A stretch of 10,082 nucleotides of DNA, from positions 1 to 10,082 of IMG/VR virus record IMGVR_UViG_2917855067_000003, one strand, 5' to 3'. Origin of the DNA: a virus. Taxonomy: Duplodnaviria; Heunggongvirae; Uroviricota; Caudoviricetes. This document shows positions 1 through 10,082 of the stretch, one piece after another. The notes below the pieces were generated by a model. It was not told where the DNA came from. It was given only the letters and a program-made list of their open reading frames with translations, and did not search any database. Made by a program: the position numbers and the translations under genes. The stretch's first letter is position 1; the number at the start of each line of letters is the position of its first letter.

Positions 1-1095
1 TTATGTTGCTACGGGTTCGTCGCATTTCGGTAGCCAGTCGCCGTAGCTTTCCTCTTTCAGCGACAGATTGGTTTGTATCCCCTGCTTAGTGTGCCGCTTC
101 TCATAATTCAGGCCGTACTCTTTCAGCATCATGGGCAGCCCCAGCCCGAACATTTTCAGGCTGAGTACGTTCCTGTACCCGTTAGCCTCCATATAGGCCA
201 GATACGCGTGATAGAGATATTTACGATAATTACGCGGGATGATGCTGGCATTCCCCATAAACATCCCGTTGGTCTGCGGGAGCATTTCCAGATAGCCGCA
301 AAAATCAAACGTAGGGTCAGCATCGCGCTTGATGCTGAGCGCCTCGTCGGAATTCTGCTGTGACTGGAGCAGTGCGCGGGCTGCCATCGGGTCGCTGAAC
401 TTCTGCATGAGCTGGCGCACAATCACGGCCAGCTCGCGCGCAATTTTATCCCTGAGCTGCGGGTCGCGTTCCTCCGGCGCAATTTGCTCCGGGAAGTGAA
501 TAATCACCCGGCGACGTGACACACCACCGCTGCGGTCGGTGAAGCGCATGGGGTTATTGTTCACTGCCAGAATCACCGCCGGAATGTGTGTTGAGTACGG
601 GTTCTGGTATTTCGGGTCAACCGAGACCGCATCGCCGCCGGTGATGGCCTTAAGCCCTGCGCCGTCACCGCTCCATTTTTCCTGGTCAGGCAGACGGATA
701 AGCGAGAAGCCAATCAGGGAGGCACGCTTGCGCGGGTCTTCCAGCGTGTCGATGTCGGCTGACGTGGCGTTATCTTCCCCGGCAAGCAATGTCGCGATTT
801 CAGCCAGAATACTTTTGCCACTCCCGCCGGGACCGGTCACTTCGAGAAAGAGCTGCCAGTCGTAACGGTTCGCCAGCACCATAAACAGCGCGGCCAGAAT
901 CACGTCGCGTTTTTGTGGATTTTTACCGGCTGCACGGTCGAGCCAGCGCCAGAAGTTCGGCGCGTGCGTCCCCAGCCGTTTCCCCTTCCACCGGCGGGGT
1001 AAAATCCACATCGCACAGCGTGCGCAGCCAGTGCGATTTGTGGTGCGGGCTGAATACGCCGCTTTGGGTATCGAGTACCCCGTTGCGAAAGCCAA
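1..1095 (-). CDS. alpha: P4 alpha-type primase/helicase, C-terminal segment (SF3/D5-like helicase and origin-binding part); homologous part is about 4..975, stop codon at 1..3
   Basis: ORF-track translation contains Walker A GPGGSGKS and the long C-terminal region typical of P4 alpha. It lies in a different frame from 923..2335 and overlaps it. The ATG at 1095 is an ORF-caller start, not necessarily a biological one. Confidence 0.8.
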   Translation of the reverse strand: MAFATGYSIPKAAYSARTTNRTGCARCAMWILPRRWKGKRLGTHAPNFWRWLDRAAGKNPQKRDVILAALFMVLANRYDWQLFLEVTGPGGSGKSILAEIATLLAGEDNATSADIDTLEDPRKRASLIGFSLIRLPDQEKWSGDGAGLKAITGGDAVSVDPKYQNPYSTHIPAVILAVNNNPMRFTDRSGGVSRRRVIIHFPEQIAPEERDPQLRDKIARELAVIVRQLMQKFSDPMAARALLQSQQNSDEALSIKRDADPTFDFCGYLEMLPQTNGMFMGNASIIPRNYRKYLYHAYLAYMEANGYRNVLSLKMFGLGLPMMLKEYGLNYEKRHTKQGIQTNLSLKEESYGDWLPKCDEPVAT

Positions 1096-2335
1096 TCAGA
1101 CGGCGCGCCGGTGTATCCTGCTGCGGAATAATCAGTTTCAGGGTCTCCACAACTGAGGCGATTTTCCCCGACGAGAACGGGGCGCGCAGACGCTGGAATA
1201 AGTCAGCCACATTCCGTGAAAAAGTGGCGACAGGGATATTTTTCCAGATGCCGTTTTCATAGCGGGACAGGAGCTGGCCGTTCGCATCCACTGCCAGCGC
1301 TTCGCCGTAATGCTCATGCACCCGCAAAGCCTTGTCGCTGGCGCTCATGGCGGTAAATTCCGCCTCGCTCATGGTATCAAACGGACTTTGCGCCGGTGGC
1401 CGGATGGCGTCATAAATCGCTTTGCGTGTGGCTTCCTCGCCGTACTGTATAAACGCATCATTCCAGTCACCGAATACCGGCGGCAGGGCAACAACGCCCT
1501 CACAGGCGTCTGCGGCCGCAGCGGCTTTACTCTGGCCGTCGCCGTTAAGGTCACGGTCGGCAGCGAGCACAATCTGACAGGCCGGGGACTTCTGACGGGC
1601 AAGGCTCGCCAGAGAAAGGAGGTTCACGGAGGACAGTGCTACCATGACGGTTTCCCCGGTCAGGTGATGCACGGTGAGTGCAGTCGCATACCCCTCTGCA
1701 ATCCACAGGCGTTTTCCGGCCTGTTTTTTCCCTTCGATGGTATGGCATGCTCCTTTTACCGCCCCGCCTTTCAGGGTGCGTTTGAGACCGTCAGAATTGA
1801 TAAGCTGAAGGTTAACCAGTGCGCCGGTATCGTCATACAGCGGGACAACCACATCACCGGCGCGGAACGTCACGCCGCCGGTTTTGTGTGTGGCCGACAG
1901 TACCGGACATTCCCGGTCGGGGAAACCCTTTCGGGTCAGGTAGGCGTTGCCGCTGGCCGGTCGGGTTTTCTCCATGAGCCTGACGGCCAGTGCGGCCGCC
2001 GCTTTGCGGTCAGCCTCCGTTTCAGCCTCTGCGGCCGCAATCACTTCCGGGGCAACCGGCGGCAGATTGCCGGTCACGGCGTTCACCTTCCCGGCGGCCT
2101 CTGAGGGAGTCACGCCAAACACTTTTTCTACCAGCTTAAGCCCGTCACCCGCGCCGCATTGATTGCAGAACCACGTCCCGCGCCCTTCTTTATCGTCAAA
2201 GCGGAAACGGTCAGAGCCGCCGCATACCGGGCAGGACTGATGGCGGTTTTTAATTACTTTCACACCCAGCGCAGGGAGAATGCGCGGCCAGTGGCCGCAC
2301 GCCTGTTTTACCGTTTCTGTTACGTTCATTTTCAT
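923..2335 (-). CDS. alpha: P4 alpha-type primase/helicase, N-terminal segment (zinc ribbon and primase domain); ends prematurely at 923 unless a frameshift is corrected
   Basis: Translation from MKMNVTETVKQ contains the zinc-ribbon motif CPVCGGSDRFRFDDKEGRGTWFCNQCG. The ATG at 2335..2333 is preferred over 2386 because AGGGAGA lies 9 nt upstream. The frame stops at 923 while the homology continues in another frame. Confidence 0.8.
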   Translation of the reverse strand: MKMNVTETVKQACGHWPRILPALGVKVIKNRHQSCPVCGGSDRFRFDDKEGRGTWFCNQCGAGDGLKLVEKVFGVTPSEAAGKVNAVTGNLPPVAPEVIAAAEAETEADRKAAAALAVRLMEKTRPASGNAYLTRKGFPDRECPVLSATHKTGGVTFRAGDVVVPLYDDTGALVNLQLINSDGLKRTLKGGAVKGACHTIEGKKQAGKRLWIAEGYATALTVHHLTGETVMVALSSVNLLSLASLARQKSPACQIVLAADRDLNGDGQSKAAAAADACEGVVALPPVFGDWNDAFIQYGEEATRKAIYDAIRPPAQSPFDTMSEAEFTAMSASDKALRVHEHYGEALAVDANGQLLSRYENGIWKNIPVATFSRNVADLFQRLRAPFSSGKIASVVETLKLIIPQQDTPARRLIGFRNGVLDTQSGVFSPHHKSHWLRTLCDVDFTPPVEGETAGDARAELLALARPCSR

Positions 2336-2349
2336 CGTTGTTTTCTCCC

Positions 2350-2670
2350 TCAGTGCAGTACCGGTGCGGTGATATGACGGGCGCAAAGCTCATCCATCAC
2401 GGCCAGCCCGAGAAAGGACAGCGACGGGGCAGCTTTCAGTGGTCCGACTTCCATTAAATCTTCCAGCAGGGCACAGGCAATCTGACGGCCTTTTTCCTCG
2501 CCGTGCTGGCGCAGGTAGAAGCCCTCCAGCTCGGCGGCAATGGCGCTTTCCAGCGCGTCGAGGGTGAGGTGCGGGTAGCGGTGCTGGCGTTCGCACAGGG
2601 TCAGCCATGCACAGGCCACTGCGCGACGATACAGCGCGGCGCGTAATACGGGCGGTAATGGCTTTTTCAT
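2350..2670 (-). CDS. hypothetical protein (106 aa), P4-like leftward operon, immediately upstream of alpha
   Basis: ORF with SD GGGGAGGG upstream of the ATG at 2670. Its start overlaps the stop of the preceding ORF (ATGA), and it ends 14 nt before the alpha start. Function not recognised. Confidence 0.6.
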
Positions 2671-2894
2671 ACGTTACCCTCCCCGGTAAGCCACTGCTGA
2701 TTGCAGCGTTCGACCACGCCGTCGAGCTGGGCGGTCATGAGGTAAATCACGGAGGTGAGCTGTAACTGCTGCGTCGGGTCACGACGAACGGTGGCGCAGT
2801 CCTGCACCTGCATCAGGTTGCCGACGAGCTGGCCGACGTTGCGCATATGCTCCAGACATTCGAGGTCACGGGCGGTAATGGTGGTGTGTCTCAT
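2667..2894 (-). CDS. hypothetical protein (75 aa), P4-like leftward operon
   Basis: ORF with SD GGAGGTG upstream. ATGA overlaps at both ends indicate translational coupling. Function not recognised. Confidence 0.55.
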
Positions 2895-3085
2895 GCGCGC
2901 ACCTCCGCAACCGGCAGACGGCCAGCGAACGAGAGGACGTAATCGCGAATGAGGGAAAGGCGTGCGGCGTGCTCATCACCGGCAACGGTGCGGAGCATAC
3001 AAATACGGGGGGTACGGTCTGCGCGACGAACAGCGGCAAACACAAAGACAAACTGCGGGTGTGACGGGGTGAGGGTCGTAGCCAT
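2891..3085 (-). CDS. hypothetical small protein (64 aa), first gene after the putative leader terminator
   Basis: ATG at 3085 is preceded by a near-consensus SD (AGGAGG, about 9 nt spacing). The same frame stays open up to 3442, but that extension crosses a terminator hairpin and lacks an SD, so the short form is preferred. Confidence 0.5.
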
Positions 3086-3288
3086 AAGGGCAACCTCCTG
3101 TGAATAGCGGTTATTGCCACCACCGGAGTTCCTACGCTCATGGGTGGTGACCCGAACGGGGGTAGGAATACCGGCTTCACAGAATACCGGCCAGCCCGAA
3201 AGCTGCCCCGCCCGGACCACCATTATCTGACAGGGGCTATGGAATAAGCACCACAGCCCGAAAAATGGGTGTGCCTGAGCAACGACGT

Positions 3289-3311
3289 AAAAAAAGACGC
3301 ATGGCGCGTCT
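3289..3311 (-). terminator. rho-independent terminator for leftward transcription (P4 timm-like position)
   Basis: On the minus strand: stem AGACGC / GCGTCT (plus 3295-3300 and 3306-3311), 5-nt loop, followed by a run of 7 U (plus-strand A-run at 3289-3295). Confidence 0.5.
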
Positions 3312-3367
3312 GTTGTCGCCTGTGAATTACACGGGTTCCTACGCCCGGCTGCCGATTTTGCGGCAGC
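3289..3367 (-). ncRNA. candidate small structured RNA (position analogous to the P4 CI / C4-type immunity RNA)
   Basis: About 350 nt lacks a convincing coding region between alpA/vis and the next SD-bearing ORF. The minus-strand transcript would start with a 7-bp hairpin (plus 3348-3354 / 3361-3367), contain further imperfect stems, and end at the terminator. A possible -10 (TATAGT, plus 3374-3379) lies just upstream. No homology check was possible. Confidence 0.25.
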
Positions 3368-3438
3368 GGGAAAACTATACCTGGAAACGGCGAAAAGAAG
3401 CAAGCCAGAAAAAGGGGCTGTTTGCTGAACGGTCATCA

Positions 3439-3705
3439 TCATGCGTCATAGCCCCGGTTACGTTCGGCAATGCGATCCGCCATCCATGCAGTGATTTCAG
3501 ACTGCGCCCACGCCACATTTTTTCCGCCGAGGGAGATTTGTTTCGGGAAGGCTTCCCGGCTGATGAGGTCGTAAATGGTCGAGCGGGACAGGCCGCACAG
3601 ATGCATCACTTCGGGCAGACGGATAAAGCGCTCGTGAACGGTATCAGAAACCGGCATCAGCGGCGCGGCAGGGGCAGAAGACGGGGAAGAAAAAGCAGTG
3701 TGCAT
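3439..3705 (-). CDS. alpA: AlpA/Vis-family helix-turn-helix regulator (88 aa), matching the size of P4 Vis
   Basis: Translation contains the AlpA-family signature ([47 protein letters not shown]). SD GAGG lies upstream of the ATG at 3705. Confidence 0.85.
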
Positions 3706-3766
3706 CGGGCTACCTCACAAAGTCCATACAGTGCCGGTCGTGTCCGTCCGGCTTCGGGTAGCTCCT

Positions 3767-3795
3767 TATTATGTCTATATTTTTCCTCAGGTCAT
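3767..3795 (-). promoter_or_regulatory. candidate sigma70-type promoter for the leftward alpA/vis operon
   Basis: Minus strand reads ATGACC, a 16-17 nt spacer, then CATAAT/ATAATA, about 55-60 nt upstream of the alpA ATG. The -35 is weak. Confidence 0.25.
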
Positions 3796-3834
3796 GTGAG
3801 ATTTTCGGGGAAACAAACATTGACTTTTCGCTCT

Positions 3835-3871
3835 GGCAAACAAAGGCAAACGCTGGCAAACATATGCAAAT
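3835..3871. promoter_or_regulatory. four direct repeats at exact 10-bp phasing (GGCAAAC x3 and TGCAAAT); candidate regulator binding array
   Basis: GGCAAAC at 3835-3841, 3845-3851 and 3855-3861; TGCAAAT at 3865-3871. They sit in the divergent control region between alpA/vis and sid. Confidence 0.4.
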
Positions 3872-3873
3872 CA

Positions 3874-3889
3874 CTGCATTACAATGCAG
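3874..3889. promoter_or_regulatory. perfect palindrome CTGCATT-AC-AATGCAG; candidate operator
   Basis: 7-bp inverted arms with a 2-bp spacer, directly after the phased repeats and before an AT-rich stretch. Confidence 0.4.
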
Positions 3890-3971
3890 CAATTTCTATT
3901 TCTTTTAGTTATATATTTTTCATTTTTAATCAAAATAAAGTCTAAATGCTATAACCAGAGCAAAACAGGAG

Positions 3972-4105
3972 GGTGAACAGTGGTGAACAGACGGTGAACA
4001 GTCAGACCCTCAACTATTCACCCTTTAACTTACTGTATTAATTATCTTTTTATTTAAGGTGAACAGTGGTGAATAGTTATAAGTAAAAAAATAAACGGTG
4101 AGTAA
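3972..4105. repeat. iteron array GGTGAACA(G), the reverse complement of the P4 type I iteron TGTTCACC; ori/crr-like alpha binding region
   Basis: GGTGAACAG at 3972-3980, 3982-3990, 3993-4001 and 4058-4066; GGTGAATAG at 4068-4076; inverted copy CTATTCACC at 4013-4021; degenerate GGTGAGTAA at 4097-4105. Spacing is 10-11 bp within clusters, and an AT-rich stretch (about 3890-3960) lies alongside. Confidence 0.7.
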
Positions 4106-4152
4106 GGTTTTCCTGCGACCTTTCTCTGGCCAGCCGGTTTTTAAGGTCTGTT

Positions 4153-4170
4153 TGTGCCAGCATTCTGACA
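4153..4170 (+). promoter_or_regulatory. Ogr/Delta box (TGT-N12-ACA) of a Psid-like late promoter
   Basis: TGT at 4153-4155 and ACA at 4168-4170 are separated by 12 nt. The dyad centre is about 80 nt upstream of the sid ATG, consistent with a -55 activator site and a short leader. A weak -10-like CAGAAT lies near 4205-4210. Confidence 0.45.
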
Positions 4171-4242
4171 ACGGCAATGAATCGTGTTGTTGTGCAGGAG
4201 GCGTCAGAATCATTTCAGGTTGAACACACGGAGAACCTGAAC

Positions 4243-4986
4243 ATGAAACCCGAACTCATTATCAAAGCCATGCAGACCGTTATCAGTAAACAGGATGAAG
4301 GCGCGGAACAACGCATTGCCGGTGCGCTGGCCGCACTTAACGAAGCAAAAGATGCACACACGGCCAGCATGGGTAAACTCAGCGACATTGAGGCTTCCAT
4401 TCAGCGTTGTGAGCAGGAACGACAGACCGCCCTCAGTGAAAGTGCACAGGCCGAACAGGACTGGCGCAGCCGCCTTCGAACTCTGCGCGGCAACCTCACT
4501 CCTGAACTGAAAGCTGAACACAGTAAACGTATCGCCAGCCGCGAACTGGCTGATGAGTTCACCGGTCTGATTACCGAGCTGGAGAAAGACAAAAGTCTCG
4601 CCATGCTTGGCGCATGCTCCTCCGGTACGGCTTATATCAGCGCCCATGAAAAAGCATTCACCACTTACGCCAACAGCGAATGGAAGAAGGTGCTGGCCGG
4701 TATCAGCCCCGCACTGTTACGTGCCTTCCTGTTGCGTATACGGTCGCTGGAAATGAGCGGAGAAACCTCATCGCGTGCGACCGCGACACGTGAGCTGGGT
4801 GATGCCCTGAATCTGCAGTCAGCCCTGTATCATTTTGATATGGAGCAGGAGCCGGTCCTGTCCGTAACGGGCATGAATCGCCCGGTCATAACCGGGGTTG
4901 ATATGGCGCTGTTAAGAAGCCCGGCCAGACGGATGAAGCTTGCCGCTGAACTGGCTGCAAAATCCCACGAACAGGCAGAGGGCTGA
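4243..4986 (+). CDS. sid: Sid-like capsid size determination (external scaffold) protein, 247 aa
   Basis: Assigned by position as first gene of the sid-delta-psu operon, by its charged, helix-rich composition, and by a length near P4 Sid (about 244 aa as I recall). Start at 4243 has SD GGAG 9 nt upstream; the ORF-track start at 4177 would lie inside the promoter. Confidence 0.6.
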   Translation: MKPELIIKAMQTVISKQDEGAEQRIAGALAALNEAKDAHTASMGKLSDIEASIQRCEQERQTALSESAQAEQDWRSRLRTLRGNLTPELKAEHSKRIASRELADEFTGLITELEKDKSLAMLGACSSGTAYISAHEKAFTTYANSEWKKVLAGISPALLRAFLLRIRSLEMSGETSSRATATRELGDALNLQSALYHFDMEQEPVLSVTGMNRPVITGVDMALLRSPARRMKLAAELAAKSHEQAEG

Positions 4987-4989
4987 ATT

Positions 4990-5229
4990 ATGTTTCACTG
5001 TCCGTTCTGCAAAAAGACCGCGCACGTCCGTACCAGCCGTTATCTGTCGGAAAACGTCAAACAGCGTTATCACCAGTGTACCAATATCGAATGTTCGGCC
5101 ACTTTCCGCACCATCGAGTCGGTTGACGGTGTGATACGTGCCGCACCGGAGAAACCTGACCCCACCCCGGTGACGCCGCTGCCGCCGCGTAAAGAACAGG
5201 GCTGCTACAGCTCGCCGTTCCGGCATTAA
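4990..5229 (+). CDS. delta: Ogr/Delta-family zinc-finger late-gene transcription activator (single-domain, 79 aa)
   Basis: Translation MFHCPFCKKTAHVRTSRY...YHQCTNIECSATF has the Ogr/Delta Cys4 arrangement (C4, C7, C30, C35). It starts 4 nt after the sid stop, with SD GAGGG upstream. Confidence 0.85.
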   Translation: MFHCPFCKKTAHVRTSRYLSENVKQRYHQCTNIECSATFRTIESVDGVIRAAPEKPDPTPVTPLPPRKEQGCYSSPFRH

Positions 5230-5244
5230 TCAGGAGAGAGACAC

Positions 5245-5811
5245 GTGACCACTATGACAATACAGCAGGCCTTTGAGGCCTGTCAGGCAAACAAAAACAC
5301 CTGGCTGACACGTAAAGCCGAACTGGCTGACCTTGAACTTGAATACCGTGAACAGCTCCTTGCTGGTGACGAACAAATCCCGCGCAAAATGCAGGATTTG
5401 CGCGACAATATCGACGTGAAAAAATGGGAGATTAATCAGGCCGCCGGTCGCTATATCCGCTCACATGAGGAGGTGCAGCACATCAGCATCCGCAACCGGC
5501 TCTATGACTTTATGCAGCAGCACGGCGCGGAGCTGGCCGCCACGCTGGCGCCTGAATTGATGGGGTATAATGAACAGCTTCCCGTAGTAAAACAGAGCGC
5601 CATGCAGCATTCGGTTGATTATCTGCGTGAAGCCCTGTCAGTGTGGCTGGCCGCAGGTGACAAAATTAATTATTCCGCGCAGGACAGCGACATTTTAACG
5701 GCCATCGGATTCAGGCCTGATGCGGCTTCGCGGGATGATAATCGAGAGAAATTCACCCCGGCACAGAACCTGATTTACACCCGCCGACGTGCAGAACTGG
5801 TCGCACGGTAG
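5245..5811 (+). CDS. psu: Psu (polarity suppression protein; Rho inhibitor / capsid decoration), 188 aa
   Basis: Translation (..IQQAFEACQANKNTWL.., ..NQAAGRYIRSHEEVQHISIRNRL.., ..KINYSAQDSDILTAIGFRPDA..) closely resembles P4 Psu as I recall it. A GTG start at 5245 sits 8 nt after SD GGAGAGAG; the alternative ATG at 5254 is too far from the SD. Confidence 0.9.
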   Translation: MTTMTIQQAFEACQANKNTWLTRKAELADLELEYREQLLAGDEQIPRKMQDLRDNIDVKKWEINQAAGRYIRSHEEVQHISIRNRLYDFMQQHGAELAATLAPELMGYNEQLPVVKQSAMQHSVDYLREALSVWLAAGDKINYSAQDSDILTAIGFRPDAASRDDNREKFTPAQNLIYTRRRAELVAR

Positions 5812-5857
5812 CACGCGAAAAAATCCCCGAAAATTCCGCTATTTTTCCTGAAAAAAG

Positions 5858-5884
5858 CCATGCATCCATAAGGTGCATGGTTTT
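5858..5884 (+). terminator. candidate rho-independent terminator of the sid-delta-psu operon
   Basis: Stem CCATGCATCC / GGTGCATGG (one wobble, 4-nt loop) followed by TTTT at 5881-5884, about 47 nt after the psu stop. Confidence 0.45.
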
Positions 5885-5984
5885 GCATGCAAATCCCCGT
5901 ATTTTATTTCCCCCACCACGCCAGTACCGGCGCGGCCTGAGCCGGTTCATGCACCTGCATTAAAAGTGACCTCTTAAGCGGGCA

Positions 5985-6003
5985 GGCGTGGCGGGGAGAG
6001 CAT
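5985..6003. other. cos-like site (resembles the 19-nt P2/P4 cohesive end)
   Basis: GGCGTGGCGGGGAGAGCAT matches GGCGAGGCGGGGAAAGCAC at 16 of 19 positions. That P2/P4 sequence is recalled from memory and not verified. The site is downstream of psu, where P4 has cos. Confidence 0.4.
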
Positions 6004-6269
6004 TGCGCGCTGGAATAATAATTAATTATTTATTTTCTCGCTCTGTGTTTGTCATTGATGAGTGGCAATTCGTTGACATGCTGGAGAGATATAATGCTGT
6101 TTAAAAGGAAAGAAGCACTTCTGAGGCTTTTAGGTTAGAGGGGAAGTTAAGGCCGCCTTGAGGCGGCGAAAATTAGTCATTTTGGGTATCGAGGAGTAAT
6201 ATTAGGCTGAATGCCACATGCTCCTGAATTAGAACCTTGAGTGCGAGTTGCTACATAAATAAATGGAGC

Positions 6270-6950
6270 TTAAAAATGATTAATCAAGATTTGATTTTTT
6301 TTAATTGCTCGTCTACTCCAGTGCTCTGTGATGTTTTGAGTGAAGTCGGGACGAACTATTTTTGCTCTAAAGTCCACTGCTTCAAGAGATTCTACTCTCA
6401 AATATATTCCTTCTGATATTTCATCGCTGAATTTTGATTTTTTTATATAAGAAGATAACTTGTTTAGTTCAAAGAAACCTTCGTCAAGAAAAGGAACGCA
6501 ATGAAGGTTTGCATTTGATATTATTTCGTTTCTTTGAGGAAGTGGTAAAAATATTTTTCTTTTCTTATCGAATACATCAAATGCTAAAAAATAGTCAGGT
6601 AAGCGGGTGTAGTGAATAGAATGTTTCGCATAACACCATTCCCCAAATATAATGTATTGGTCTCGAATGTAGTCAAAAAGGTTGTCGCGGTTGTAATTTA
6701 ACCAGTCAGGAAGCATTTTCCATTGGCCATTAAAAGGTTGATGTAAAAAAGAACCCCTATTTTGAAGGAGTAAGTCTGCATTACCATTAAAGGAAATGCC
6801 TAGATTAGCTCCGTCAATTTTCTCTTCTATTATGGTTTTTTTAGTTGAAAGCAATAATCGTTCTTTATCTGAAATGACCTTGTCATCCCTGACGTTAGGA
6901 TGGTAAAAAATATGTGGAGTGGACGGGAATTTATATAGTTCATCTTCCAT
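6270..6950 (-). CDS. Rnl2-type RNA-ligase-like nucleotidyltransferase (standalone adenylyltransferase domain, about 226 aa)
   Basis: Translation carries ligase motifs in the right order and spacing: motif I EEKIDGAN (KxDG), motif III FGEW, motif IIIa FDVFD, motif IV EGIYLR, motif V RAKIVR. ATG at 6950 has SD AGGAAG 9 nt upstream; the ORF-track GTG at 6977 has no SD. It is AT-rich and overlaps the upstream gene by 11 nt. Confidence 0.7.
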   Translation of the reverse strand: MEDELYKFPSTPHIFYHPNVRDDKVISDKERLLLSTKKTIIEEKIDGANLGISFNGNADLLLQNRGSFLHQPFNGQWKMLPDWLNYNRDNLFDYIRDQYIIFGEWCYAKHSIHYTRLPDYFLAFDVFDKKRKIFLPLPQRNEIISNANLHCVPFLDEGFFELNKLSSYIKKSKFSDEISEGIYLRVESLEAVDFRAKIVRPDFTQNITEHWSRRAIKKNQILINHF

Positions 6951-7479
6951 TTGGAAACTTCCTATTATATGTATCACTTATGAGTTTTTCGTCAGCAAAA
7001 TGAACCGTTATGCCTACATCAGCAAGAGATTCTTTCCAGCCCCACCATTTACTATCAGTTGCTTGAAAAATAGGCGGTTTGTCTACGTGTGCGTATGACG
7101 TGGCTACAAATTTTCTATCCGATAAATCAAAGTTTGTCAGGCCTTCATGTACAGGGAACTCCTCATAGCTAGTTTCGGTTTTTGTAATTCTTACGATGTT
7201 TTTATCAGGGAATTTCCATTGGTTAGTGTAAATCCATTTCATAAATTTATCACCAACGCCAGGGGCTCCACTCATGCTTAAATTTGAGCGATACTCTTCA
7301 ACTATTTCTTGTGCTTCATCAATAACTAACCCACCATTTGCAATTGCCTTTTCTATTATTTCAACACACTCTAAAACACAGCTTAGAATATCATCTGGAA
7401 TGTTTTTTATATCTGTGTGCATATTAGCTGTAACAGCAACATTTGTATCAATTAAAAAAGCAGCAGGTAATTTATTCAT
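6940..7479 (-). CDS. PIN-like domain protein (putative nuclease), 179 aa
   Basis: N-terminal AAFLIDTNVAV resembles the first PIN strand with its conserved Asp; further acidic positions (DEAQE, ATDSKW, ISDTY) fit the PIN pattern. SD GAAGG upstream; start overlaps the ATPase stop (ATGA). The domain call is by eye. Confidence 0.6.
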   Translation of the reverse strand: MNKLPAAFLIDTNVAVTANMHTDIKNIPDDILSCVLECVEIIEKAIANGGLVIDEAQEIVEEYRSNLSMSGAPGVGDKFMKWIYTNQWKFPDKNIVRITKTETSYEEFPVHEGLTNFDLSDRKFVATSYAHVDKPPIFQATDSKWWGWKESLADVGITVHFADEKLISDTYNRKFPNGR

Positions 7480-8861
7480 TTAGATGTACCTTCTTTTTCT
7501 TTTATTCTTCTTTTTAACGCTGATTTTGCTTGCTCTGTAATGTCTGTTAATTCATCACCAAAGAAATTATCTGGCCAGTTGAGGATATTTCCAAATGTAT
7601 CGATTTGCAACGGTGTTAATTTTGGGGTTGAAGATGAAATGTCAGAGAAGTACGCGGAAACTTCCTCGGATTTTATTTTGTCTTCTGCTATTCTCCTTTG
7701 CAGTCTGCGAAGGAAATGCTCTGAGTGAGTTTCTATAATTAGCTGTATGCCTCTTGATTTTCCATTTTCTCGTGAACGGATAACATCGATCATAACATCA
7801 GCAAGCACTGATTGTGCTTTTGGGTGTAAATGAATTTCGGGTTGTTCCATCAAAATTATTGAGCCTGGTTGAGCGTAAAAGCATTGTACTAGAACTGGAA
7901 GAACCTGAGAAACCCCAAACCCAACATCTGGAAGGTCTACCCACTGTTTAGAGCCTTTAGTTTTAACTTTGACTTCATATTCTTGACGATGTTCTGAAAT
8001 TGCTTTTACAGAAAAACTATCAATTAAGTCCATTTGTTTTAATTTTTCAGCGATGATTTCTTCTAATGGTTTATTTTTCTTTTTATAATCAAGGCCGATT
8101 CTTCTTTCTTTTGATGAAAGAATGGCGGAAATTGCATTTTCACCTGCATAACCTACGCTTTCTGGTGAAATTCCAGTCCATGGATATAATCGTTCAGGCT
8201 TATTTCTCATTGGCCCTAAGTAACATACTGAACGGAATAGCTTTTCATGCATTAGATTGATGTCTTGCACAAAATCAGCATTTTGATGGTAAGCTACGAC
8301 TTCCTCAGGGAAACCATAAAATCTAACTACATCTTTTATCGCCCAAACCCTACCCTTCTGTCGAGTTAGAGTGAAATTGTTAGTTTTGATTTTATAATTT
8401 GACTTAGCGTCACGAACAAGTCCTATAGATACATCATCTTTTTCTTTCTGATAGAATGTATATGAGAATCCATTGACATATAAGCTATTATTCTCAGCAT
8501 TAAAAGATATCTCAGATTTAAAATGGCATATTTTCGATAAGGATATAATGCTGTCTAATGATGATTTAGAGTATAATTCATCTATTGACCAAGAGTACTC
8601 AAATGAGATGTTCTTGTTAACGTCTCTCATGTTAACCATGTCTTGAAATGAGCCCAATTGTACTGCTGAGTTTTTACCTCCTGGGTAGAATGGGGTTTTT
8701 CTATCAGATGATTCAACCGTTTGTTTAAGCATCATGAGAAGCTGGCCAATACTAGATTTACCAGAGCTATTTGTTCCAAAGAAAAGAGTGATAGGTGACA
8801 TTTTGATTTCACCTGTATCAGTCCAAACCTTAAAATTTTCTACTTTTAATGTTTTAAACAT
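7476..8861 (-). CDS. ABC-type ATPase (AAA_15/AAA_21, OLD/RecF-like), 461 aa
   Basis: Walker A GTNSSGKSS near the N-terminus, Walker B region ILMEQPEIHLHP and H-loop ETHSEHF near the C-terminus, with a long insertion between, as in defence-associated ABC ATPases. SD AAGGA upstream; ATG is only 3 nt after the int stop. Confidence 0.85.
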   Translation of the reverse strand: MFKTLKVENFKVWTDTGEIKMSPITLFFGTNSSGKSSIGQLLMMLKQTVESSDRKTPFYPGGKNSAVQLGSFQDMVNMRDVNKNISFEYSWSIDELYSKSSLDSIISLSKICHFKSEISFNAENNSLYVNGFSYTFYQKEKDDVSIGLVRDAKSNYKIKTNNFTLTRQKGRVWAIKDVVRFYGFPEEVVAYHQNADFVQDINLMHEKLFRSVCYLGPMRNKPERLYPWTGISPESVGYAGENAISAILSSKERRIGLDYKKKNKPLEEIIAEKLKQMDLIDSFSVKAISEHRQEYEVKVKTKGSKQWVDLPDVGFGVSQVLPVLVQCFYAQPGSIILMEQPEIHLHPKAQSVLADVMIDVIRSRENGKSRGIQLIIETHSEHFLRRLQRRIAEDKIKSEEVSAYFSDISSSTPKLTPLQIDTFGNILNWPDNFFGDELTDITEQAKSALKRRIKEKEGTSK

Positions 8862-8864
8862 TTC

Positions 8865-10082
8865 TTATCCTTTGCTTTTAGATTTTATGATGGAAGCATT
8901 TTGGATTTCATCACCCCACCAAGCTAATAAATCACTACGTTGTTTTAAATAATTTGCACGGTTATATGCTCTTCTGACTTCATTTTTATCTGTATGTGCC
9001 AAAGATGATTCAATTATATCAGCGTTGAAACCAGCTTCATTCATAGTTGTACTCGCGATAGAACGTAATCCATGTGCGACTAATTTACCACCATAACCTA
9101 TTCGCTTCAAAGCGGCATTAGCCGTCTGGCTATTCATAGGTTGCTGTGGATCATTTCTACTTGGAAAAATATATTCTCTATGTGCACTGATTGGCCTCAT
9201 TACTTCCAGAATCTCTAATGCTTGAGTAGAAAGAGGTACGATGTGTTCCCGTTTTGCCTTCATCCGTTCGGCTGGGATCGTCCAGAGTTTGGCATTGAGA
9301 TCGATCTCTGCCCATCGTGTACCTGAAGCCTCAGAAGGTCGCACGAGAGTCAGAAGCTGCCATTCAATAAGACAGCGAGTCGAAACAGACAGATTCGACA
9401 TCACCAAAGAGCGCATTAGCTTCGGCAATTCTTCCGGCCGAAGGGTCGGCATGTTTTGCTTTTTTGGTTTCTCAAATGCCATTCCGACACCTGATGCCGG
9501 GTTTGCATCAATCAGGCCAGTGTTGACGGCGTAGATCATGATTTCGTTAATACGTTGTACCAGGCGGCGAACCGTCTCTAATGCGCCACGTGCTTTGATT
9601 GGCTCCAATGCTTCAACTATCGTTCTGGCCTTAATTTCCTGAACAGGTATTGCGCCTATTGCGGGGAACACGTCCTTATCTAAAGAGCGCCATATATCTT
9701 TCGCGTAGTCTTCAGTGACGCTTTTGCTCTTCATTTTGAACCAGTTGGCGGCCACAGTTGAGAAAATGCTATCCAGCTCAATCTGACGCTGTTCTGATGC
9801 CTGCTCTTGTTGCTGTTGCGGATCCATACCCTGCGCGAGTGTGGTTAAGTGCTGGTCGCGTATCTGACGAGCTGCTGCGAGAGTAAGGGCAGGGTATGAG
9901 CCGAGACTCAAATTAGTTCGGCTGCCACTGACCGGACGTTGATAGCGGAAGCGCCAGAGTTTTTTACCGGTGGTTTTGACGAGCAAGAACAGGCCGTCAC
10001 CATCATGAAGGGTGAAGTCTTTTTCCCGAGGTTTGGCTTTAAGGATTTCGTTGTTAGTGAGGGGGCGTGTGAGGCGCGCCAT
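8865..10082 (-). CDS. int: P4-type tyrosine integrase (405 aa)
   Basis: N-terminus MARLTRPLTNNEILKAKPREKDFTLHDGDGLFLLVKTTGKKLWRFRYQ is the P4-integrase arm-binding domain; C-terminus has HGLRSIAST and RRAYNRANY (catalytic Tyr). The start codon is the last 3 nt of the window. Confidence 0.95.
   Translation of the reverse strand: MARLTRPLTNNEILKAKPREKDFTLHDGDGLFLLVKTTGKKLWRFRYQRPVSGSRTNLSLGSYPALTLAAARQIRDQHLTTLAQGMDPQQQQEQASEQRQIELDSIFSTVAANWFKMKSKSVTEDYAKDIWRSLDKDVFPAIGAIPVQEIKARTIVEALEPIKARGALETVRRLVQRINEIMIYAVNTGLIDANPASGVGMAFEKPKKQNMPTLRPEELPKLMRSLVMSNLSVSTRCLIEWQLLTLVRPSEASGTRWAEIDLNAKLWTIPAERMKAKREHIVPLSTQALEILEVMRPISAHREYIFPSRNDPQQPMNSQTANAALKRIGYGGKLVAHGLRSIASTTMNEAGFNADIIESSLAHTDKNEVRRAYNRANYLKQRSDLLAWWGDEIQNASIIKSKSKG

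Follow-up and report, generated by a model that had tools for sequence, protein, structure and literature searches.

The locus studied here raises two questions: what is the array of short repeats that lies between vis and sid in a P4-like satellite prophage, and what could fire it, if it is a replication origin, when the gene for the presumed initiator reads out of frame? The window, by which we mean the whole 10,082-bp stretch of DNA analysed, is such a prophage. Several prophage and viral contigs share about 95% identity with its core (positions 1-6010), and for a prophage at ssrA of E. coli HKUOPY1 the value is 94.8%. The element has the following features:

1-2335, minus: gene for the alpha primase-helicase, with one extra G at about 977 (coding nt 1359)
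25-324, minus: coding sequence of the C-terminal origin-binding winged-helix domain of alpha, out of frame with the start codon
between alpha and the C4/isrK region in the gene list, minus: ORF106 homologue (from the gene map)
3140-3380, minus: C4/isrK immunity RNA region (Rfam)
3439-3705, minus: vis (AlpA-family regulator/excisionase), left neighbour of the putative origin
3768-3795, minus: promoter-like site reading into vis, at the PLL position (consensus match only)
4153-4170, no strand assigned: TGT-N12-ACA dyad upstream of sid, an Ogr/Delta-type activator site at the Psid position, conserved in the alignment
4243-4986, plus: sid homologue, right neighbour of the putative origin
4990-5229, plus: short Ogr/Delta-type gene
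5245-5811, plus: psu
6270-8861, minus: cargo block between psu and int
8865-10082: integrase

The promoter-like site aligns with the P4 region upstream of ORF88/vis, and the dyad presumably has the function established for P2/P4 late promoters.

Several parts of the element deserve mention in their own right. Rfam models of the C4 antisense RNA, isrK and the c4 a1/b1 target all match above the gathering score, and the P4-type RNA immunity looks intact. The Delta homologue is a protein of 79 aa with a single Ogr/Delta zinc-finger domain, to which P4 Delta (166 aa) aligns twice (residues 1-44 and 87-139), as if the P4 protein were a tandem duplication of a unit of the window type. The cargo block encodes a 461-aa AAA_15/DUF3696 ATPase (PADLOC HEC-03B, E = 1e-124), a 179-aa protein (PADLOC HEC-03A, E = 2e-25) and an RNA ligase-family protein of 235 aa for which PADLOC gave no hit, and is a candidate defence system in a known P4 hotspot; the HKUOPY1 relative carries in the same place an AAA family ATPase and a DUF4435-domain protein instead. 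GATC is strongly depleted, with 1 site in the core of the window against about 23 expected and 8 in the whole window against 36.4 +/- 5.6 expected (6/8 of them in the integrase gene); the core of P4 (4600-11624) likewise has 1 against about 27 expected.

The repeat array and its counterpart in phage P4

The octamer TGTTCACC occurs four times in the window as an exact match, each time on the minus strand (3972, 3982, 3993 and 4058), against a mean of 0.23 expected, and 0/200 dinucleotide shuffles of the whole window reach four. The octamer scan also reveals two copies with one mismatch, so that the TGTTCACC/GGTGAACA array spans 3972-4075 and comprises six copies, four exact and two with one mismatch:

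3972-3979, minus: type I iteron 1, exact TGTTCACC, aligned with P4 9310-9317
3982-3989, minus: type I iteron 2, exact, 10 bp from iteron 1, aligned with P4 9320-9327
3993-4000, minus: type I iteron 3, exact, 11 bp from iteron 2, aligned with P4 9331-9338
4015-4022, plus: type I iteron 4, inverted, one mismatch (TATTCACC), aligned with P4 9353-9360
4058-4065, minus: type I iteron 5, exact, aligned with P4 9396-9403
4068-4075, minus: type I iteron 6, one mismatch (plus-strand GGTGAATA), aligned with P4 9406-9413

Three direct copies are followed by one inverted copy and two further direct copies (10 bp apart), and the offsets from the first copy (0, 10, 21, 43 for the inverted one, 86 and 96) are near whole helical turns. 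The sequence-only reading had described six to seven copies with 10-11 bp spacing, one of them inverted. The octamer scan and the shuffles bear out the array, its spacing, the inverted copy and six of the repeats; the seventh falls away. This candidate, GGTGAGTA at 4098-4105, has two mismatches, and P4 reads AGTAAGCC there without an annotated repeat. The position is kept in close relatives only and we therefore do not count it as an iteron.

A distant BLAST search with the segment 3700-4250 against phage records returned phage P4, and the matched stretch is annotated as 'origin of DNA replication', with six features named 'ori type 1 repeat' and three named 'ori type 2 repeat'. In the P4 record (X51522) the type 1 repeats lie at 9310, 9320 and 9331 (minus), 9353 (plus), and 9396 and 9406 (minus), and all six (9310-9413) fall inside the rep_origin feature. 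The octamer, the number of copies, their orientations and all their offsets are identical in the window and in P4. The pairwise alignment is near-perfect from iteron 1 to beyond iteron 6, including the 35-bp AT-rich spacer (32/35 identical), and in both elements the array lies between vis (ORF88) and sid, with the alpha gene upstream. The window thus shares with P4 ori1, the alpha-dependent origin, the octamer, its arrangement, the AT-rich internal segment and the location in the vis/PLL-Psid/sid interval. It differs from P4 in a C-to-T change in each of iterons 4 and 6, in a left flank that cannot be aligned, comprising the region of the 'type 2 repeats' together with the AT-rich tract, and in the frameshift in alpha.

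Because the offsets match P4 base for base and the layout is family-wide (see below), we conclude that the array is a homologue of P4 ori1, already known and found here in a new host element. It is very probably the ori1 of this P4-like satellite prophage, alpha-dependent by the precedent of P4. The earlier identification of a P4-type origin made of type I iterons agrees with the GenBank record of P4 in repeat number, orientation, spacing and vis-sid position. The consensus TGTTCACC, which the sequence-only reading gave together with its place in ori and crr, matches the annotation of the same record, where the octamer is marked ten times in crr. A full-text literature search for the octamer yielded primer sequences as the sole matches.

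P4 replication by alpha is of the DnaA-independent theta type. A scan of 3700-4250 for DnaA boxes, the IHF consensus and GATC came up empty, as would be expected of an origin that works without DnaA. By analogy with P4, the C-terminal winged-helix domain of alpha would bind the octamers of ori and crr, the SF3 helicase part would open the duplex, and the N-terminal primase would start bidirectional theta replication without DnaA, DnaB and DnaG. Binding of alpha to the octamers of ori and crr, unwinding and priming were reportedly described by Ziegelin et al. in 1993 and Diaz-Orejas et al. in 1994.

Conservation of the array and its AT-rich segments

To describe the distribution of the array, we scanned one genome per prokaryotic species with a pattern made of iterons 1-3 only, which returned 32 loci in which the conservation of these three iterons is by construction. 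Enterobacteria account for 24 loci from 12 genera (Phytobacter, Kluyvera, Erwinia, Enterobacter, Buttiauxella, Raoultella, Klebsiella, Citrobacter, Tenebrionibacter, Pantoea, Cedecea and Pseudescherichia). The iterons outside the pattern recur in them at the same offsets with at most one mismatch: iteron 4 in 24/24 loci (as a copy at offset 42/43), iteron 5 in 23/24 and iteron 6 in 21/24. Homologues of vis and sid both flank the array in 21/24 loci, and in the remaining three one flank lies beyond the fetched locus. The scan of related P4-like islands that had been proposed from the sequence alone therefore finds the array layout in 24 enterobacterial loci, with both neighbours in place in 21 of them. 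The iteron layout is kept even where alpha is just 55-59% identical to that of P4. The T variant of iteron 6 is also found in most relatives with intact alpha, and the variants of both mismatched iterons (4 and 6) occur in relatives whose alpha is intact; the origin in the window therefore shows no decay.

A search of 5426 complete E. coli genomes located the iteron core in 1028, with 1220 occurrences in total and no more than 4 in any one genome; the whole 3700-4250 segment is matched in only 59 genomes. When distant E. coli copies are aligned, the iterons and the spacer are invariant and the flanks variable. One iteron sequence and one layout are thus found across the P4-like family from Erwinia to Escherichia, which implies that any alpha of the family could cross-fire any origin of the family.

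The other eight loci are from Haemophilus and contain GGTGAACA arrays of a different build, with 4-5 plus 2 direct copies at 10-11 bp spacing and no inverted copy. They adjoin genes for an HK97-type capsid, a prohead protease and a portal protein at the edge of the element, and no homologues of P4 proteins were found within 8 kb of the array in any of the eight. These arrays may belong to a different satellite or phage family with the same iteron.

Three segments in and around the array are rich in A and T:

3890-3960, no strand: AT-rich tract left of the array, composition kept and sequence variable
4023-4057, no strand: 35-bp AT-rich spacer between iterons 4 and 5, 86% AT
4076-4100, no strand: A-rich tract after the array, mean AT 0.76 and at least 0.70 in every locus

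The left tract had been proposed as the unwinding element. Its AT-richness holds, as 30-bp windows within it reach 87-93% AT in the window, and its part at about 3890-3945 averages 75-80% AT across loci and is AT-rich in most of them; across the same loci it shows indels and no sequence conservation. The proposed role does not hold equally well. The internal spacer 4023-4057 is kept both in sequence and in composition in 25/25 loci (mean AT 0.80, minimum 0.77), and because of this conservation, which the sequence of 3890-3960 lacks, we consider the spacer the more likely unwinding element; the left tract may be auxiliary. According to what Tocchetti et al. are said to have found (J Virol 1999), the minimal ori1 of 123 bp consists of six iterons and a 35-bp AT-rich region, and insertions within it reportedly abolished function. 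We take this 35-bp region to be the counterpart of 4023-4057 and not of 3890-3960. The probable location of the essential AT-rich element is thereby corrected to the inside of the array.

Boxes upstream of the PLL-like promoter

The left flank, which cannot be aligned with P4, contains repeats of another kind upstream of the PLL-like promoter (3795-3768), at the position that the 'ori type 2 repeats' take in P4:

3834-3871, plus: four 10-bp phased boxes, TGGCAAAC, AGGCAAAC, TGGCAAAC and ATGCAAAT, matching the Apl operators of phage 186

Weaker boxes continue in phase to 3891, giving four to six boxes of the TGGCAAAC type in all. A perfect hairpin (CTGCAT-TACA-ATGCAG) at 3874-3889, with a terminator-like score on both strands, lies between the boxes and the AT-rich tract and overlaps the two weakest of the 10-bp boxes.

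The three P4 'ori type 2 repeats' are CCACTTAAAG, TCATTTAAAG and CCACTTAAAG. Read in register as TTAAAGTCA, TTAAAGCCA and TTAAAGCAA, they fit the P2 Cox-box consensus TTAAA(G/C)NC(A/C), and at 9176-9205 P4 has at least three such boxes at 10-11 bp phasing. P2 Cox has been reported to bind upstream of the P4 PLL and to wake the P4 prophage (PMC3936717). Because of the fit to the Cox consensus and the reported place of Cox binding, the type 2 repeats of P4 are more likely to be helper-sensor sites than parts of the origin. No array of three or more phased TTAAA(G/C)NC(A/C) boxes is present in the window at the corresponding position. Like those of P4, the boxes of the window lie upstream of PLL and recur in direct orientation once per helical turn, but they are of the Apl type where those of P4 are of the Cox type.

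A pattern scan of viral contigs found the window-type box array in many P4-like elements and also in 186-like prophages. In the latter it has two locations, the attachment site with the adjacent int gene and the apl-cI interval, and both carry the annotation of Apl binding sites in phage 186 itself. We built a scoring matrix from the 12 annotated Apl operators of 186, with which the boxes at 3834-3871 score 38.6 bits, compared with 12.2 +/- 2.3 (maximum 19.1) for shuffles and 13.5 for the best site in the P4 genome. A requirement for three adjacent operators has been reported (PMC7498355), and the window has four adjacent TGGCAA-type copies in phase. P4-like loci exhibit further types of boxes, namely TGGCC(A/T)TTAT, GG(T/G)CAATAT, CTGGAAGG and the P4-type TTAAAG, next to a constant iteron core; different modules occupy the vis-sid intergenic regions of L020/L026/L034, L005/L012/L013, L097/L098 and L099.

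We also considered the boxes as binding sites of Vis, a reading that we dropped for one in which the binder comes from outside the element and is encoded by the helper. The E. coli loci L098 and L099 encode an identical Vis (WP_001149160.1) and have different boxes, which speaks against Vis as the binder. Near the attP of P4 there is no further copy of the P4 box motif, and near int/att of one relative that was inspected (L002) the window-type box is likewise missing. As to co-residence in E. coli, the box module is found in 16 genomes and the 186-like apl region in 43, with an overlap of 0 where 0.13 is expected by chance, a comparison that has no power.

We hypothesize from these matches that the satellite answers an Apl-type regulator of a 186-like helper and not P2 Cox. 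More broadly, and tentatively, the P4-family origin region might be modular, with a universal alpha-iteron core and a swappable helper-sensing module upstream of PLL: Cox boxes in P4, mislabelled 'ori type 2 repeats', Apl-type boxes in the window and other types elsewhere. A literature search on related terms returned no paper that states such a reading. If it is true, each satellite would be tuned for waking by the excisionase or regulator of a particular helper lineage. The Apl-type boxes, if real, would then be a marker, readable from sequence, of the helper phage lineage of a given satellite, useful for predicting satellite-helper pairs and for engineering P4-based delivery. The location of the origin of one more P4-like satellite matters very little in itself; the Apl-type boxes matter more than the origin.

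The alpha frameshift and the firing of the origin

The claim that the helicase and origin-binding part of alpha is out of frame proved correct, owing to the one extra G. Two reading frames of the window are needed to align P4 alpha, one for residues 1-453 and the next for 451-775; the insertion leads to 17 aberrant residues and a stop after residue 470, and its removal restores a 777-residue ORF with no further stop. Alpha has zinc-ribbon, Toprim, D5_N and Pox_D5 domains, in the order primase, SF3 helicase and winged helix (PMC2777425), and the truncated product lacks both the helicase part (SF3, with DUF5906 and Pox_D5) and the origin-binding domain at the C terminus. The coding sequence of the latter still specifies 94/100 residues identical to the P4 domain in PDB 1KA8 (E = 3e-61). 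As the sequence stands, the alpha encoded in cis would end before its helicase and DNA-binding domains, and the origin would fire only with alpha from elsewhere. The extra G is absent from 25/25 related loci that contain the site, and the 15 matches listed of 74 in E. coli all align 251 query bases to 250 subject bases. As it occurs in no relative, it would have arisen very recently or be a sequencing error. The combination of an intact origin with a broken alpha, to which the sequence-only reading drew attention, is thus present in the sequence as given, and it hinges on a single G seen in no relative.

Before asking what fires the array, one has to ask whether it is an origin at all, since it lies between two divergent promoters, with the TGT-N12-ACA activator site 78 bp to its right and regulator boxes to its left. 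The repeats might serve chiefly to bind transcription factors that act on the late promoters PLL and Psid. This is highly improbable, as the P4 record labels them as origin repeats and the octamer is also found far from these promoters, in the crr that follows alpha both in P4 and in close relatives. The crr of P4 lies immediately beyond the alpha gene, about 4.5 kb from ori, and is a second site that replication needs in cis. Close relatives carry it as two repeats of five iterons each, at the same distances from the alpha stop codon as in P4; we found it in three of them (L002, L061 and L096). In a viral contig about 95% identical to the window core we observed one crr repeat of the two, with five iterons and not ten.

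With the array taken as an origin, three accounts of the extra G compete. It may be a sequencing or assembly error, with alpha intact and the origin fired in cis as in P4. The G is the sole lesion, the rest of the element is intact and every one of the relatives compared lacks it, but the change is from a single G to GG with no long homopolymer, which is atypical for a homopolymer error; we regard this account as a real possibility, short of probable. If the frameshift is real and recent, the origin could instead be an inert remnant, too young to have decayed. One lesion in an otherwise intact element is what this would leave, and pseudogenised components are common in P4-like elements (PMC8628076), but sequence alone does not distinguish such a remnant from an origin activated in trans, and we find it somewhat unlikely. 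In the third account the origin is fired in trans, with alpha supplied by another P4-like element that is co-resident or incoming. The mechanism is a reasonable one, given a single iteron for the whole family: octamer and layout are common from Erwinia to Escherichia, so that any alpha of the family should recognise the origin, several such origins can share one E. coli genome (see the counts above), and the array has not decayed beyond the variants of functional relatives. It would, however, depend on a crr in cis, whose place is to the left of the window; moreover, a single unshared mutation gives no sign of selection for the broken-alpha state. We consider trans firing the least expected of the three, and unlikely.

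The crr of P4 (X51522 4291-4590) has the same octamer as the array in the window but is a separate site, and since the window starts at the stop codon of alpha, it excludes the crr region. Iteron origins of plasmids and of SaPI/PICI elements are likewise built of phased initiator-binding repeats flanking an AT-rich segment. The array in the window differs from them in having no DnaA boxes, and the P4-type system differs in its initiator, a primase fused to an SF3 helicase and a winged helix, and in requiring crr as a distant second site.
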